A DNA stretch of 64,000 nt from an uncultured Acidimicrobiia bacterium (GTDB lineage Bacteria; Actinomycetota; Acidimicrobiia; Acidimicrobiales; CAIXPF01). The DNA is taken from contig CAIXPF010000205.1 of the NCBI GenBank assembly GCA_903921205.1, forward strand, positions 26,657 to 90,656, given 5' to 3'. Below, piece after piece: positions 6,725 through 59,600 of the stretch. How positions within the stretch are numbered: the stretch's first letter is position 1; each line of letters starts with the position of its first letter. The position numbers and the translations under genes were made by a program. The notes beneath the pieces were generated by a model that ran no database searches, was not told the DNA's origin, and saw only the letters and a list, made by a program, of their open reading frames with translations.

Positions 6725-8635
6725 ATGGGCAACGTGGCGACGGCATTCTGCGCGACCCTGGTCGACGAGTGGGTCCGGGGCGGGCTCGTCGAGGCGTTCA
6801 TCGCACCCGGCTCGCGATCGACGCCATTGGCGTTGGCCCTCGCGGGCCATCCCGGGGTCCGCGACGAGATCGTCCTCGACGAGCGGGTTGCCGGGTTCAT
6901 GGCGCTGGGGTCGGCGTTGGCGTCGGGGCGGCCGGCGGTCGTGCTCACGACATCGGGCACCGCGGTCACCCATCTGCACGCGGCCGTGGTCGAGGCGCAT
7001 CTTTCCGAGGTGCCGCTGCTGGTGTGCACCGCCGACCGGCCTCCCGAGTTGTACGGCGTCGGTGCGGCGCAGACCATCGAACAGCAGCGGATCTTCGGCA
7101 CCGCGGTGCGCGCCTACCTCGATCTCGGCGTGCCCGACGAGCACAATCGCAACGCCTGGCGGTCCCTGGCCGCCCGATCGTTGGCCGAGACGACCGGTTC
7201 GCCGGCGGGCCCCGTGCAACTGAACCTCAGCTTCCGCGAACCGCTGGTGGGCGACGGCGGCCCGATCCCGCCCGGCCGCTCCGACGGACGACCCTGGCAT
7301 CGGCGGGTCGTGCCGGCGGCCACCCCGTCCGATGCGTTGCTCGCCGAGTTGGCCGGATCCTGGATCGGTCGACGAGGGGTGTTCCTGGCGGGAGCGGGGG
7401 TCGACGATCCTCAGGCGGTGCTGGATCTGGCCGAGGAGCTGGGCTGGCCGGTGTTGGCCGAACCCCGCAGCAACACCCGCATCGCCGCGCCCGTGGTCGT
7501 CGCCCATGCCGATGCCATCATCCGGGTGCCGGCCTGGTCCGAACGGCTACGGCCCGAGGTGGTGGTGCAGCTGGGCCAGATGCCCGCATCGAAGGTCCTC
7601 GCCGGCTGGACGAAGGCAGCGGTTTCGGTGCCCGACGTGCCCGACGTGCCCGGCCCGACCGGGCCGACCGGGTCCAATGGCGCGATGCCGGCCGAGCGGG
7701 TGGTCGTGAACGAGGCGGGTTCGTGGTGGGACCCCGACCGCCAGGCTGGGCTGGTCGTGGCCTGTACGCCGGGCCGTCTCGCCGCTGCGCTGTGCGAACG
7801 GCTGCGGGCCGAGCGTGCGCACCACGACGGGTCGTCCTGCGGTGCCGGGTCGGCCGCCGGATCCGACGCGTCGCTGCAGCGATTCGACGTCGATTCGCGG
7901 CCCGCGGGATGGCTTGCTGCCTGGCGCGCCGCCGATGGTGCAGCGGCGAGCGCCCTCGAAGAGGAACTGGCCCGTGGCGCGGACGAGGCCCTGCCGAGCG
8001 AGCCGGCGGTTGCCCGGGCCGCTGCTGCGGCCGCTCACCGCCATGGTGCCGGGGCCCTGGTCGTGTCCTCGTCGATGCCCGTTCGTGACCTCGAGTGGTA
8101 CCTGCCCCGGGCCCCACTCGGCGACAATCCCCCACCCGTGTTGTCCAATCGCGGCGCGAACGGAATCGACGGGGTCGTGTCCACGGCGATCGGTGCGGCC
8201 GTCGCCCTGGCTCCGGCACCGGTCTGGGTGCTGATCGGCGACCTTGCCTTCTTGCACGACAGCAACGCCCTGCTGAACCTGGCCGAGCGCAACATCACGG
8301 TGCGGCTGGTGATCGTGGACAACCGCGGCGGCGGCATCTTCTCGTTCCTGCCGCAGGCCTCCGTCGTGGAGACGGCCACTTTCGAGCGCTTGTTCGGGAC
8401 CCACCAGCAGCTCGATCCGGCGGCGCTGCTGCGGGCGCACGACATCGAGACGGTCGAGCTCGATCGCACCGACCGGCTCGAGCGGGGCCTCGAGGAACTG
8501 GTGCGTTCCACCGCTGCGGTCGCAGCGCTGGTGGTCCGCACCGGCGACCGGGCGTCGAACGTGGCGGCCCATGACCGCCTCCATGCCGCCGTGTCCGCTG
8601 CCCTGGCGACGGTGCCGCCTGCCGACGGGGTCTGA
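6725..8635 (+). CDS. menD: SEPHCHC synthase (thiamine-diphosphate dependent)
   Basis: The ATG at 6725 is preceded by GGAAGGAG. The N-terminus reads GSRSTPLALAL, and the ThDP-binding motif is GDLAFLHDSNAL...VIVDNRGGGIF. The ORF appears longer than I expect for MenD, with low-complexity inserts at about 7620-7900. Confidence 0.9.
   Translation: MGNVATAFCATLVDEWVRGGLVEAFIAPGSRSTPLALALAGHPGVRDEIVLDERVAGFMALGSALASGRPAVVLTTSGTAVTHLHAAVVEAHLSEVPLLVCTADRPPELYGVGAAQTIEQQRIFGTAVRAYLDLGVPDEHNRNAWRSLAARSLAETTGSPAGPVQLNLSFREPLVGDGGPIPPGRSDGRPWHRRVVPAATPSDALLAELAGSWIGRRGVFLAGAGVDDPQAVLDLAEELGWPVLAEPRSNTRIAAPVVVAHADAIIRVPAWSERLRPEVVVQLGQMPASKVLAGWTKAAVSVPDVPDVPGPTGPTGSNGAMPAERVVVNEAGSWWDPDRQAGLVVACTPGRLAAALCERLRAERAHHDGSSCGAGSAAGSDASLQRFDVDSRPAGWLAAWRAADGAAASALEEELARGADEALPSEPAVARAAAAAAHRHGAGALVVSSSMPVRDLEWYLPRAPLGDNPPPVLSNRGANGIDGVVSTAIGAAVALAPAPVWVLIGDLAFLHDSNALLNLAERNITVRLVIVDNRGGGIFSFLPQASVVETATFERLFGTHQQLDPAALLRAHDIETVELDRTDRLERGLEELVRSTAAVAALVVRTGDRASNVAAHDRLHAAVSAALATVPPADGV
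7880..7897. repeat. Core repeat copy 1 (CGATTCGACGTCGATTCG), in frame inside menD
   Basis: This is the exact reverse complement of the cores at 28470 and 59506. It is translated as (Q)RFDVDSR. After the core, the reverse complement continues CTGCAG, similar to the CTGCGAG that follows copy 4. Confidence 0.85.
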
Positions 8636-18196: not shown

Positions 18197-18369
18197 GGCA
18201 ACCACCTTTGGGAGATGGCGTCTCAGAGAGGCCGGAACACGAACGATCGTCTGGCCTGATCGATTCCGGCCAGTATCACCGGCGCCTATGACAGCGAAGA
18301 AGGTCACAATTAGCGATCTCGCCGACGCTCAACGTGAAAATCGTGCTCGGGGAGGGAAGCGCACTGTGC

Positions 18370-18407
18370 CCGCTCGGGGCGAATCGACGTCGATTCGCCC
18401 CGAGCGG
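18370..18407. repeat. Perfect 38-bp palindrome containing core repeat copy 2 (18380..18397)
   Basis: The sequence CCGCTCGGGGCGAATCGAC|GTCGATTCGCCCCGAGCGG is exactly self-complementary, with 19-nt arms. It is intergenic. Its central 18 nt match the core found at 7880, 28470, 28500 and 59506. Confidence 0.9.
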
Positions 18408-18473
18408 ACGCACTCGTGATCTGCTTGCTCCCCGTTCCACTTCCAAGAGTGAAAAATTGACCGCTATAGGTGG

Positions 18474-28100: not shown

Positions 28101-28149
28101 GGGCGTCGGGCCGGTCCGGCCACCCTCAGAGGGCAGGAAGTCGTTCACC

Positions 28150-30447
28150 ATGTCGGAGCAGTCCTCCACGATGAGCCAGCAGTACCGCACCCTCGGTGGA
28201 ATCGTCGTCCACCGAACCGTCGAATCGGTGACCGCGGCGCCGGCCGTCGAGTCCCTCATCGACCGGCTCGATGCCCGCCGCGGGGTGTTGCTGTCCTCGA
28301 GCTACGAGTACCCGGGGCGCTACACCCGGTGGGATCTCGGCTTTGCCGACCCGCCGCTGTCGGTCTGGGCCCGTCAGCGAGAGGTTCACGTCGAGGCGCT
28401 CAACGCCCGCGGTGCCGTGCTGCTGCCGGCCGTCGCTGCGTCTCTCGGCGCGCTCGACCTCGATCGCGCCGAATCGACGTCGAATCGCCCCGACTTCGTC
28501 GAATCGGTGTCGATTCGGCCCGAGGGGATCGACCTCGTCGTCCGCCGCCCCGACCGCCGCTTCGAGGAGGAGGAACGCAGCCGTCAGCCCTCGGTCTTCT
28601 CGGTCGTCCGGACCCTCATCGATCTGTTCCGCTCCCCGGACGACCCCCATCTCGGCCTCTACGGCGCCTTCGGCTACGACCTGGCGTTCCAGTTCGAGGA
28701 GTTGCGGCTCCACCTGGAGCGTCCGGACGAGCAGCGGGACCTCGTGCTGTACCTGCCCGACGAGCTGCTCGTCGTCGATCATCGGCGCGAACAGGGCGAA
28801 CGCCGCCGGTACGACTTCACGGTGAGCGGCGCCGACGGCGCGCCCGTCACGACCCTGGGACTCGAGCGGTCCGGGGTGGCGTTGCGGTACCGGCCGCGGC
28901 CTGCCGTGGCGGCCGGAAGCGATCACCGACCGGGTGAGTACGCCGCCCTGGTCGATGAGGCCAAGGCCTCCTTCCGCCGGGGTGATCTGTTCGAGGTGGT
29001 ACCCGGCCAGTGTTTCACCGAGCCCTGTCCCGCCTCGCCGTCGGAACTGTTCCGTCGCCTGCGCGAGCGCAACCCGTCGCCCTACGGGTTCCTGATCAAC
29101 CTCGGCGAGGCGCCGACGCGCTCGGACCCCGAGGCGGGGGAGTGGCTGGTCGGTGCGTCCCCTGAGATGTACGTCCGGGTCGACGAGGACCGGGTGGAGA
29201 CATGCCCGATCTCCGGCACGATCGCCCGTGGACGCGACCCGATCTCCGACGCCGCCCAGATCCTGGCCCTGTTGAACTCCGACAAGGATGCGTCGGAGTT
29301 GACCATGTGCACCGACGTCGACCGCAACGACAAGTCGCGGATCTGCGTGCCCGGGTCGGTCAAGGTCATCGGCCGCCGCCAGATCGAGATGTACTCCCGG
29401 CTGATCCACACGGTGGATCATGTCGAGGGCCGCTTGCGTCCGGGCTTCGACGCGCTCGATGCCTTCCTCAGCCACACCTGGGCGGTGATGGTGACCGGGG
29501 CGCCGAAGGCGTGGGCGATGCAGTGGATCGAGGCCCACGAACGTTCGCCGCGGGCGTGGTACGGCGGCGCGGTGGGCATGGTCGGCTTCAACGGCAACAT
29601 GAACACCGGCCTGACCTTGCGCACCATCCGGCTGACCGGCGGCGCGGCCCAGGTCCGGGTGGGCGCAACGCTGCTGTTCGACTCCGACCCCGAGGCAGAG
29701 GAGGCCGAGACGCAGCTCAAGGCGTCGGCGTTCCTCGACGCGATCCGCAACCCCGGACCACCCGCAGCCCCTGCCGGAGCGACCCCGGGTCTGCTCAGCG
29801 GGGCGCCCGCCGGTCTGGCCGATGAGCCCGGTGCCGGCCGTCGGGTCCTGCTCGTCGATCACCAGGACAGCTTCGTGCACACCCTGGCCAACTACTTCCG
29901 GGCCACCGGCGCCGAGGTGGTCACGCTGTGCTGCCCGCCGGAAGGAGCAGGCCTCGACCCGGCCGAGCTCGACCGGGTCGCCCCCGATCTGGTGGTGCTC
30001 TCGCCCGGCCCGGGCCGGCCGAGCGATTTCGGCGTGGGCCGGACGATCGCCGCCGTCCTCGAGCGGGGCCTGCCGCTGTTCGGCGTGTGCCTGGGTCTGC
30101 AGGGCATCGTCGAGCACTTCGGTGGCGAGCTCGGCGTGCTGGATCCGCCCATGCACGGGAAGGCCTCGGCGATCGTGGCCGGGTCGACCGCGCTGTTCGC
30201 GGGCCTCCCGTCACCGTTCCTCGCCGGGCGCTACCACTCGCTGTTCGCCCGTGCCGAGCAACTCCCCGATGTCCTGCAGGCCACCGCACACAGCGATGAT
30301 GGGGTGGTGATGGCAATCGAGCACCGCACCCTGCCGGTGTCCGCCGTGCAGTTCCACCCCGAGTCGATCATGTCGCTCGGCGATGAGGCCGGCATGCAGC
30401 TGGTTGCCAACGTGCTACGGACGATGCCGGCGGCGAGACCGACGTGA
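28150..30447 (+). CDS. trpE: Anthranilate synthase, fused component I-component II, TrpE(G) type
   Basis: The ATG at 28150 is preceded by GGAAG. The N-terminus LSSSYEYPGRYTRWD and GAFGYDLAFQFE are typical of fused TrpE(G). The chorismate-binding core has PSPYGF, GTIARG and GGAVG. The C-terminal class I GATase domain has GVCLGLQG and FHPES. Confidence 0.9.
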   Translation: MSEQSSTMSQQYRTLGGIVVHRTVESVTAAPAVESLIDRLDARRGVLLSSSYEYPGRYTRWDLGFADPPLSVWARQREVHVEALNARGAVLLPAVAASLGALDLDRAESTSNRPDFVESVSIRPEGIDLVVRRPDRRFEEEERSRQPSVFSVVRTLIDLFRSPDDPHLGLYGAFGYDLAFQFEELRLHLERPDEQRDLVLYLPDELLVVDHRREQGERRRYDFTVSGADGAPVTTLGLERSGVALRYRPRPAVAAGSDHRPGEYAALVDEAKASFRRGDLFEVVPGQCFTEPCPASPSELFRRLRERNPSPYGFLINLGEAPTRSDPEAGEWLVGASPEMYVRVDEDRVETCPISGTIARGRDPISDAAQILALLNSDKDASELTMCTDVDRNDKSRICVPGSVKVIGRRQIEMYSRLIHTVDHVEGRLRPGFDALDAFLSHTWAVMVTGAPKAWAMQWIEAHERSPRAWYGGAVGMVGFNGNMNTGLTLRTIRLTGGAAQVRVGATLLFDSDPEAEEAETQLKASAFLDAIRNPGPPAAPAGATPGLLSGAPAGLADEPGAGRRVLLVDHQDSFVHTLANYFRATGAEVVTLCCPPEGAGLDPAELDRVAPDLVVLSPGPGRPSDFGVGRTIAAVLERGLPLFGVCLGLQGIVEHFGGELGVLDPPMHGKASAIVAGSTALFAGLPSPFLAGRYHSLFARAEQLPDVLQATAHSDDGVVMAIEHRTLPVSAVQFHPESIMSLGDEAGMQLVANVLRTMPAARPT
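28470..28517. repeat. Core repeat copies 3a (28470..28487, exact) and 3b (28500..28517, 16/18), in frame inside trpE(G)
   Basis: Copy 3a, CGAATCGACGTCGAATCG, is followed by CCCCGA, as in the 18.4-kb palindrome. Twelve nt later comes copy 3b, CGAATCGGTGTCGATTCG, followed by GCCCGAG. Together they are translated as A-ESTSNRPDFVESVSIRPE. Confidence 0.85.
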
Positions 30448-34440: not shown

Positions 34441-34460
34441 CGCTCCGCTCGTGCGGCGAT

Positions 34461-34513
34461 CCCGGGGGCGAATGGGTGCCGGTCCGACCGGCTCGGACCC
34501 ATTTCCCCCCGGG
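34461..34513 (+). other. Long imperfect hairpin in the trpB2-trpF spacer
   Basis: CCCGGGGG(cg)AATGGGT...ACCCATT(t)CCCCCGGG encloses an inner GCCGGT/ACCGGC stem. No U-tract follows. The spacer is 104 nt. Confidence 0.4.
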
Positions 34514-34544
34514 GTGTCGCCACCGCGGGTAGGTTGAGGCGGCC

Positions 34545-59343: not shown

Positions 59344-59505
59344 CCGAGCTGTCCTCGGGGGATGCCCGGTCGATCACGTTGCGCGCGCATGTGGCCGTCG
59401 ATGTACGTAGTGCACCGGCTATGACGGTCGGTGAACTCGACCCCGCTCCCGCCGAATTCGCCGAAAAAACCGGACTGAGCAGCAGTTTTAGCGAGTTCGT
59501 CGCAG

Positions 59506-59523
59506 CGAATCGACGTCGAATCG
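59506..59523. repeat. Core repeat copy 4 (CGAATCGACGTCGAATCG), intergenic
   Basis: Identical to copy 3a. It is embedded in a local hairpin that pairs CGCAGCGA with TCGCTGCG. It lies in the 257-nt, relatively AT-rich spacer between convergent uvrA and ribBA. Confidence 0.85.
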
Positions 59524-59600
59524 CTGCGAGCGAAATCCGCTCGGCGCTCCGGGGCGCGGCGAAGAACAGCCACTCTTCGTGGTGGGACGGCGTGGCTGGG

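Follow-up and report, generated by a model that had tools for sequence, protein, structure and literature searches.

An apparently undescribed palindromic repeat of Acidimicrobiales with in-frame copies in the fused anthranilate synthase gene trpE(G)

The window analyzed here, a stretch of 64,000 nucleotides (nt) of contig CAIXPF010000205.1 from an uncultured Acidimicrobiia bacterium, carries within its fused anthranilate synthase gene, trpE(G), two adjacent copies of an 18-nt palindromic motif that also occurs between genes. We consider it likely that the motif represents a family of the Acidimicrobiales resembling repetitive extragenic palindromes (REPs), that the trpE(G) copies are read in frame and have been multiplied by slippage of a 30-nt unit, and that their nucleotide sequence is under constraint. 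In its general form, CGAWTCG-ACGT-CGAWTCG, the motif consists of two 7-nt arms, each almost its own reverse complement, with a 4-nt gap between them. It is apparently an undescribed REP-like repeat that is almost confined to the Acidimicrobiales; a literature search returned no paper with the sequence, and nothing on REP or RAYT in Actinobacteria nor on palindromic repeats in Acidimicrobiia.

The two trpE(G) copies can be read directly from the sequence. The first (28470-28487, plus strand) is an exact CGAATCGACGTCGAATCG, which is the A..A form of the motif, and it recurs identically at 59506-59523 on the plus strand and at 7880-7897 on the minus strand. The second (28500-28517, plus strand) is CGAATCGGTGTCGATTCG, which follows after a 12-nt spacer and so sets a period of 30 nt; it matches the perfect palindrome CGAATCGACGTCGATTCG at 18380-18397 in 16 of 18 positions, with both mismatches in the central tetranucleotide (ACGT to GTGT) and the arms intact. 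The tandem 30-nt units on the plus strand, 28468-28497 and 28498-28527, read AESTSNRPDF and VESVSIRPEG, the copies themselves being translated as ESTSNR (E109-R114 of TrpE(G)) and ESVSIR (E119-R124). At up to three mismatches there are five sites in the 64 kb, giving 10 strand-matches where 0.11 would be expected, a number reached by none of 100 dinucleotide shuffles. Re-reading the sequence agrees with an earlier note on this stretch, which had reported an exact 18-mer followed 12 nt later by a 16/18 copy of the palindrome. The note had also drawn attention to a shared (C/G)CCCGA flank, and such a flank is indeed present at all three sites (CCCCGA at 28488-28493 and 18398-18403, GCCCGA at 28518-28523). 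However, the usual family flank is MCGC, and the match to the CCCCGA beside the 18.4-kb palindrome may therefore be coincidence; within trpE(G) this flank encodes RPD or RPE and travels with the duplicated unit.

The open reading frame (ORF) that holds both copies (28147..30447, plus strand; the start codon is uncertain and could be 28099, 28147 or 28171) is full length, contains the Pfam domains Anth_synt_I_N, Chorismate_bind and GATase, and matches the fused anthranilate synthase model TIGR01815 with 1073 bits (cut-off 739) and PRK13566 with 1101 bits. Across the copies the frame reads ...LDRA-ESTSNRPDFVESVSIRPE-GIDL..., as the earlier note had it, and both the frame and the model matches agree with that translation. 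We aligned the window protein with 28 homologues, ranging from 100% down to about 65% identity, and counted the length of the segment between the invariant residues N86 and F139. This segment has 42 residues in 11 of 11 distant homologues and 54 in the window, in agreement with the earlier note that fused homologues are shorter here; within the Acidimicrobiia it spans 44-52 residues in proteins lacking the motif, 46-47 with one copy, 48-57 with two and 74 with three (P0007). Relative to distant TIGR01815 (TrpE-clade3) members, the window adds 12 residues, located between helix 87-99 and strand 118-124. A scan of metagenomes with the TrpE(G) protein gave, among the matches listed, relatives of at most 67% identity and no new close orthologues.

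The two copies differ in how they sit in the protein. The first (AESTSNRPDF) faces a gap in distant homologues, while the second (VESVSIRPE), which adjoins the conserved GIDLVV strand, aligns without a gap to nine unrelated residues, for example VERIAPGPE or IEDLERRDD. An AlphaFold (AF2) model built from a 29-sequence alignment, in which the N-terminal domain is confident, shows a helix at 87-99, coil at 100-117, and paired strands at 118-124 and 127-132, with block-mean predicted local distance difference test (pLDDT) values of 77-92. In this model the first copy is coil, with pLDDT below 50 at residues 107-110, and the second forms the strand 118-124. Serratia TrpE (PDB 1I7Q) has a 14-residue gap opposite GALDLDRAESTSNR, in an alignment that is approximate across this weakly similar region. 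Taken from the alignment and the model, the first copy is an extra 10-residue surface loop, in line with the surface segment proposed in the earlier note, and the second re-uses an ancestral beta-strand that every homologue has. The claim of an element-derived insertion holds in that the peptide is the translation of a genome-wide DNA repeat, but only the first copy adds length.

One explanation for these observations is that the segment is ordinary protein, with ESTSNRP/ESVSIRP a conserved or repeated TrpE(G) peptide whose likeness to intergenic DNA is incidental. The peptide is found in about 10 orthologues, relative L008 encodes IESTSIR by different codons, and the second copy fills a real beta-strand in the AF2 model, all of which would be expected of such a peptide. 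However, distant homologues have unrelated residues at this place, none carrying those of the window, and the suggestion of ordinary conserved sequence is not borne out by the alignment. Furthermore, the middle residue varies (T, V, M or L) while the DNA arms are fixed, and the 18-mer occurs at least 100 times outside genes and is read in another frame in MenD (RFDVDS). The rare codons AAT, ATT and GAA are kept only in the motif, and with the codon data already contradicting it we regard this explanation as very improbable.

The codon data come from ten trpE(G) orthologues, in which codons were counted inside and outside the motif. Outside it, AAT makes up 8 of 119 Asn codons, ATT 9 of 225 Ile codons and GAA 94 of 494 Glu codons; inside, the corresponding counts are 7 of 8, 7 of 8 and 15 of 17. 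In the window the 766-codon gene has a single AAT and a single ATT, and both lie within the two copies. To allow for shared ancestry, rare-codon retention was also compared pairwise among orthologues with the same residue, and here AAT was retained in 20/20 comparisons inside the motif and 0/46 outside, ATT in 40/47 and 2/43, and GAA at rates of 0.79 and 0.27. Four-fold sites of the window and of L002-L009 agree at a frequency of 0.46-0.58, near saturation, and the motif arms are nevertheless kept; the retention of rare codons where synonymous sites are close to saturation indicates that the nucleotide sequence is constrained. The Arg codon directly after the motif varies freely among CGC, CGG, CGA and CGT, and substitutions within the motif cluster in the central four bases (T to V, M or L at the protein level). 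From these patterns the constraint acts on the DNA or RNA arms and not on the peptide, and the 18-mer in the gene seems to act as more than a peptide, its 7-nt arms being held constant above all. The description of the segment as "tolerated" was thus an understatement, as the 18-mer is kept at the nucleotide level against the codon bias.

To follow the history of the copies, the DNA of nine relatives (L001-L009), in all of which the trpE(G) locus is syntenic, was set out by codon. A single copy is present in L006, L007 and L009 and, as a variant form, in L008; two copies are found in the window, L001, L003, L004 and L005, and three in L002. In L004 the 30-nt units are identical at 26 of 30 positions, flanking codons included (GTC ... 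CGA CCC GAC), and within each genome the 6-7 nt 3' of both copies agree. The closest relative, L001, has an exact palindrome at the position of the second copy. The units of L002 measure 39 and about 42 nt, so unit boundaries are not always alike. In a neighbor-joining tree computed with this segment left out, all motif-bearing sequences fall in one Acidimicrobiia clade, and within that clade copy numbers of 0, 1, 2 and 3 are interleaved, a pattern that implies recurrent gains and losses. The simplest account of the first copy and of the change in copy number is that a 30-nt unit is tandemly duplicated and deleted; given the L004 units and the range of zero to three copies in a single clade, this fits better than two insertions. 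Folding indicates that the two trpE(G) copies can also pair with each other as a single long hairpin.

Translated copies are not limited to trpE(G). The menD gene of the window (6725-8635) contains an in-frame copy, CGATTCGACGTCGATTCG (7880..7897, plus strand), translated as RFDVDS within a loop insertion of about 20 residues that P0122 (87% identical) shares and that P0123-P0126 and most homologues lack. The exact motif is kept in the menD of L207, and in that of L208 (59% identity) the loop contains a perfect palindrome of 24 nt, CAGCGAATCGGCGCCGATTCGCTG, read as QRIGADSL; relatives that fall between the motif-bearing menD lineages lack the motif. The dnaX gene of the Acidimicrobiia metagenome-assembled genome (MAG) Dino_bin48 (L075:1559-1606) carries two 30-nt tandem units with exact 18-mers, which are translated as PAESTSNRPG and PAESTSNRRA within the disordered tau linker of DNA polymerase III. 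Frame and period in dnaX are those of trpE(G), and the menD copy is read in another frame and orientation. By inspection, none of the six frames of the motif contains a stop codon and the motif is therefore translatable; all three frame classes are in use.

These comparisons also bear on a second explanation, namely that a small mobile palindromic element, similar to a Rickettsia palindromic element (RPE) or a miniature inverted-repeat transposable element (MITE), inserted at least twice independently in a permissive loop and is now neutral. The first copy in L001 and L004 has a short complementary lower stem (GGGG..CCCC and GGGT..ACCC, respectively) like that of the intergenic copies of the same genome, the MenD loop copies differ in form (T..T in the window and L207, A..T in L208) between lineages that motif-free relatives separate, and the L002 periods depart from 30 nt, each of which is consistent with separate arrivals. 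Against this, the 30-nt units share flanking codons within each genome, the second copy adds no length, and no target-site duplication or terminal inverted repeats were seen beyond the palindrome itself. In addition, AAT, ATT and GAA codons under neutrality should vanish in a genome of 70% GC, yet their retention is 0.79-1.0. Independent insertion is in our judgment rather unlikely. A MITE in the strict sense was ruled out, as the copies are not flanked by direct repeats and the palindrome makes up the entire unit.

The range of the repeat was assessed by scanning 185,579 species, each represented by one genome, for exact matches; this returned at least 117 stretches, 101 of them from Acidimicrobiia (Iamiaceae, Microthrixaceae, Aquihabitans, Iamia and unclassified Acidimicrobiales). 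Aquihabitans sp. G128 (NZ_CP077604) and A. daechungensis (NZ_CP172265) are among the genomes matched. Single MAGs hold at least 9-13 loci of the 18-mer. Among the matches listed, the 16 stretches from outside the class are singletons in unrelated phyla, about the chance level in 596 Gb, and viral contigs gave one match in 2.9 million. Matches in a Gemmatimonadales genome (L028:717) and an Anaerolineae genome (L107:521) top extended hairpins with stem extensions of 10 bp and 6 bp, the latter followed by a T-run; they may be chance matches, contigs binned wrongly, or a sign that the element is distributed more widely.

Coding and noncoding positions at the Acidimicrobiia loci were called with a local codon-periodicity classifier applied in the same way to motif and random positions; a gene caller based on ORFs and third-position GC content (GC3) was dropped because it called only 64% of the DNA coding, making the intergenic categories unreliable. 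A coding signal was found for 14% of Acidimicrobiia copies, a figure that includes eight trpE(G) copies fetched on purpose, against 56% of random positions. The motif occurs about once per 15-40 kb and is depleted about 4-fold from coding DNA. Extragenic copies lie in convergent, co-directional and divergent spacers in numbers of 39, 43 and 13, compared with 628, 1154 and 640 for random noncoding positions, and from this split it follows that they favor the 3' ends of genes. In loci with called genes, 6 of 6 copies are downstream of a gene.

Outside genes the motif tops stable hairpins. Two such hairpins, to which no strand is assigned, are present in the window. The first (18366..18413), with the perfect palindromic core 18380-18397 on top of a 10-bp GC-rich lower stem, lies upstream of hisD between the upstream gene and a small minus-strand gene, and folds with -42.9 kcal/mol (z = -7.4); a simple terminator scan found no match at 18.4 kb because the hairpin has no T-run. 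The second (59490..59541), with an exact A..A core at 59506-59523 and a GCAG/CTGC lower stem, sits between the convergent genes uvrA and ribBA and folds with -27.8 kcal/mol (z = -4.0). An Rfam search of the window returned only a tRNA. More generally, intergenic copies fold at z = -4 to -9.5 and in-gene copies are unremarkable. The 18-mer core together with its complementary flanks forms arms of up to 19 bp, the flank consensus being GCGK-core-MCGC, and at least five contiguous complementary flank pairs are present in 30 of 138 copies; when flanks were re-paired between copies as a control, the number was 3.0. The A..T form of the core outnumbers T..A by 44 to 12.

The lower stems differ from genome to genome and from copy to copy, their two sides staying complementary; they read CGTACGCGT..ACGCGTACG in one MAG, GTTCAGG..CCTGAAC in a second, and GCAG..CTGC both in a third and in the window. 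These genome-specific stems point to multiplication or homogenization within each genome. REP elements carry a conserved 5' GT[AG]G tetranucleotide; here, some copies (e.g., L004:16176, L044, L121) have GTAG or GTAC in the lower stem, although this is not general. The hairpin upstream of hisD has an ortholog in L001 (L001:200-245, core at L001:214), in which the core is kept and about six lower-stem positions differ, on both arms, the pairing being preserved. The two genomes are 87-91% identical, and their DNA around the hairpin differs far less than its lower stem does. Compensatory evolution, palindrome-templated mutation or the arrival of another element variant in its place could each account for this. 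Together, these patterns suggest that the core is recognized by its sequence and the lower stem by its structure.

In one MAG, BC3.65 (JAWKIM01), a composite repeat about 170 nt long occurs at least 11 times (L016, L041, L051, L054, L059, L066, L079, L094, L101, L125 and L126; L066:5031-5175 is an example). Its two inverted 18-mers lie 127 nt apart, one of them adjoining a conserved CGTGTCTCACGACCAATTC box, and its middle is semi-conserved. Rfam gave no match to this repeat, which looks like a REPIN or a small RNA. No inverted doublets occur in the window. A motif pair that flanks ORFs in L030 was considered as a RAYT cassette and ruled out, since it encloses pth and rplY and no transposase.

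A third explanation treats the 18-mer as a duplex operator or nucleoid-protein site with half-sites 11 bp apart, through which the trpE(G) copies would regulate the his-trp cluster. The spacing of the arms is strict, as 165 of 182 arm pairs found at gaps of 0-12 nt have the 4-nt gap, and conservation of the arms contrasts with drift in the central 4 nt. W is accepted in either orientation, with no strand bias of A..A versus T..T relative to transcription (11 vs 12), and sites lie upstream of hisD, within trpE(G) and after a trpB-like gene of the same cluster. The genomic placement is not that expected of an operator, however, as copies are enriched between convergent genes and depleted in divergent, promoter-containing spacers (14% of extragenic copies vs 26% of random positions). 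The variable complementary lower stems and genome-specific variants point instead to multiplying hairpin elements, and one MAG has the 170-nt composite of two inverted copies. An operator function of this kind is therefore improbable. We also weighed parS-, Noc- and SlmA-type sites and LexA boxes, which were rejected on the extragenic bias and the variable complementary stems. The arms contain GAWTC, and a role in GANTC/GAWTC methylation is pure speculation, its literature support being confined to Alphaproteobacteria.

Returning to a REP-like repeat that is read in frame, we can outline how the present arrangement may have arisen. In the ancestor of one Acidimicrobiia clade, a copy would have come to occupy, in frame, a variable beta-strand of the TrpE(G) N-terminal domain. 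This founding copy would correspond to the second copy of today, read as V-ESTSIR-P-D/E-G, and slippage of the 30-nt unit would then have added and removed copies, the first copy of the window being one such gain. Most likely, a conserved sequence-specific protein or nucleic-acid structure recognizes the arms, and the same recognizer would constrain the extragenic copies too. Candidates include a REP-processing or REP-binding protein, or a factor that acts at the 3' ends of genes. A bolder and more tentative possibility is that the 18-mer is a selected nucleic-acid signal, whether a binding site for a protein or a hairpin of RNA or DNA, embedded in the trpE(G) frame as an overlapping code, that it marks gene ends across the order and controls, for this first gene of the tryptophan pathway, expression, mRNA fate or replication-transcription behavior, and that the copy number of zero to three serves as an evolvable dial.

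Several points weigh against the REP-like account as a whole. The founding copy could be either a true insertion or a mutated form of a pre-existing V-x-S-T-S-x-R strand. In L008, IESTSIR is written with common codons (GAG, ATC), and P0017 has VASTSTR; either peptide could be a decayed copy or a precursor. The constraint is not universal, since some lineages (P0010, P0012) have lost the motif, and 59% of cores have the A..A/T..T form with a mismatch in the apical stem, so perfect pairing of the core is not selected. With a mean pLDDT of 74 the AF2 model as a whole is only of moderate quality, the coding/noncoding classifier is a crude GC3-periodicity test, and the per-genome counts of the 18-mer are lower bounds. 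No mobilizing or binding protein was identified, RAYT genes not having been searched for. Overall, the earlier note is partly supported, and its reading of the segment as an element-derived insertion was largely right.

The his-trp cluster has the same order in the window (18743-40227), L001, L003, L004 and L008, namely hisD-C-B-H-A, an MFS transporter, a hisF-like gene, a hydrolase and a groES-like Cpn10 gene, followed by trpE(G), GCV_T-like, dnaJ-like and ABM genes, trpC, a PALP gene, trpF, trpB and trpA. A gene of 188-201 amino acids after the PALP gene is present in L004 and L008 and not in the window. In the window, the spacer after the trpB-like (PALP) gene (34441-34532) holds a different GC-rich hairpin, GGGGGCGAATGGGT...ACCCATTTCCCCCC, with the motif-like start GGGGCGAAT, at the position where L004:16176 and L008:19897 have motif-topped hairpins. 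In the convergent uvrA-ribBA spacer (59344-59600), CGAATTCG and A-rich stretches (ccgaattcgccgaaaaaaccgg) accompany the motif hairpin. Many copies in other genomes likewise have additional half-sites, CGAATCG or CGAATTCG, in their flanks, for example L007:14170-14260, L068 and L072.

Repeats translated in frame within housekeeping proteins are documented for the Rickettsia palindromic elements (PMC10969869). The 18-mer would be a second, phylogenetically remote and much smaller case of a palindromic repeat translated in housekeeping enzymes. It is unusual for such insertions that the nucleotides of the in-gene repeat are preserved long after synonymous turnover, and this nucleotide-level maintenance of a genomic repeat in three essential genes is the most unusual aspect of the system. 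The intragenic sites separate nucleic-acid from protein constraint, which intergenic copies cannot do, and trpE(G), MenD and DnaX are natural test beds for an order-wide function of the 18-mer. An apparently undescribed repeat family is also defined here, from an actinobacterial order that is little studied and for the most part uncultured; this is useful for annotation, and the variable copy number could provide a strain marker.

Three known systems invite comparison. RPEs, reportedly described by Ogata et al. in 2000, are elements of about 100-150 bp in Rickettsia that are regarded as decaying selfish insertions. Like them, the repeat described here is palindromic, occurs both between genes and in frame in unrelated housekeeping genes, leaves the protein intact when translated, and tends to lie in surface or variable segments. 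It differs in having an 18-bp core (at most about 40 bp with the stem) and a 30-nt unit, in its occurrence in Acidimicrobiales, in its tandem expansion and in its nucleotide conservation within the gene. It therefore shares with RPEs the in-frame presence in intact genes (TrpE(G), MenD, DnaX), and departs from them in size, sequence family and host.

DNA uptake sequences (USS/DUS), whose presence in coding regions was reportedly treated by Findlay and Redfield in 2009, are 9-12 nt long and non-palindromic, occur about once per kb and are common in genes. The likeness is that of a short clade-wide motif that forms hairpin pairs near terminators and whose in-gene copies lie in less conserved parts of proteins despite codon preference. 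In contrast, the motif here is an 18-nt palindrome found about once per 15-40 kb and strongly depleted from genes, and nothing suggests competence; its density and palindromic symmetry rule out an uptake sequence.

The family also resembles the REP, BIME and REPIN elements and their RAYT transposases, reportedly covered by Bertels and Rainey in 2011, Nunvar in 2010 and Ton-Hoang in 2012. REPs measure about 20-40 nt, and RAYTs are a transposase family (Y1) associated with them; in REP families the whole palindrome is usually species-specific, and conserved intragenic copies are not usual. As in those families, the 18-mer forms short, imperfect hairpin palindromes in many, mainly extragenic copies with a preference for 3' ends and convergent spacers, and genome-specific variants occur; the inverted doublets of one MAG may be a further parallel. 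Unlike in REP families, several families of an order share an identical 18-nt apical core, and it is the lower stem that varies.

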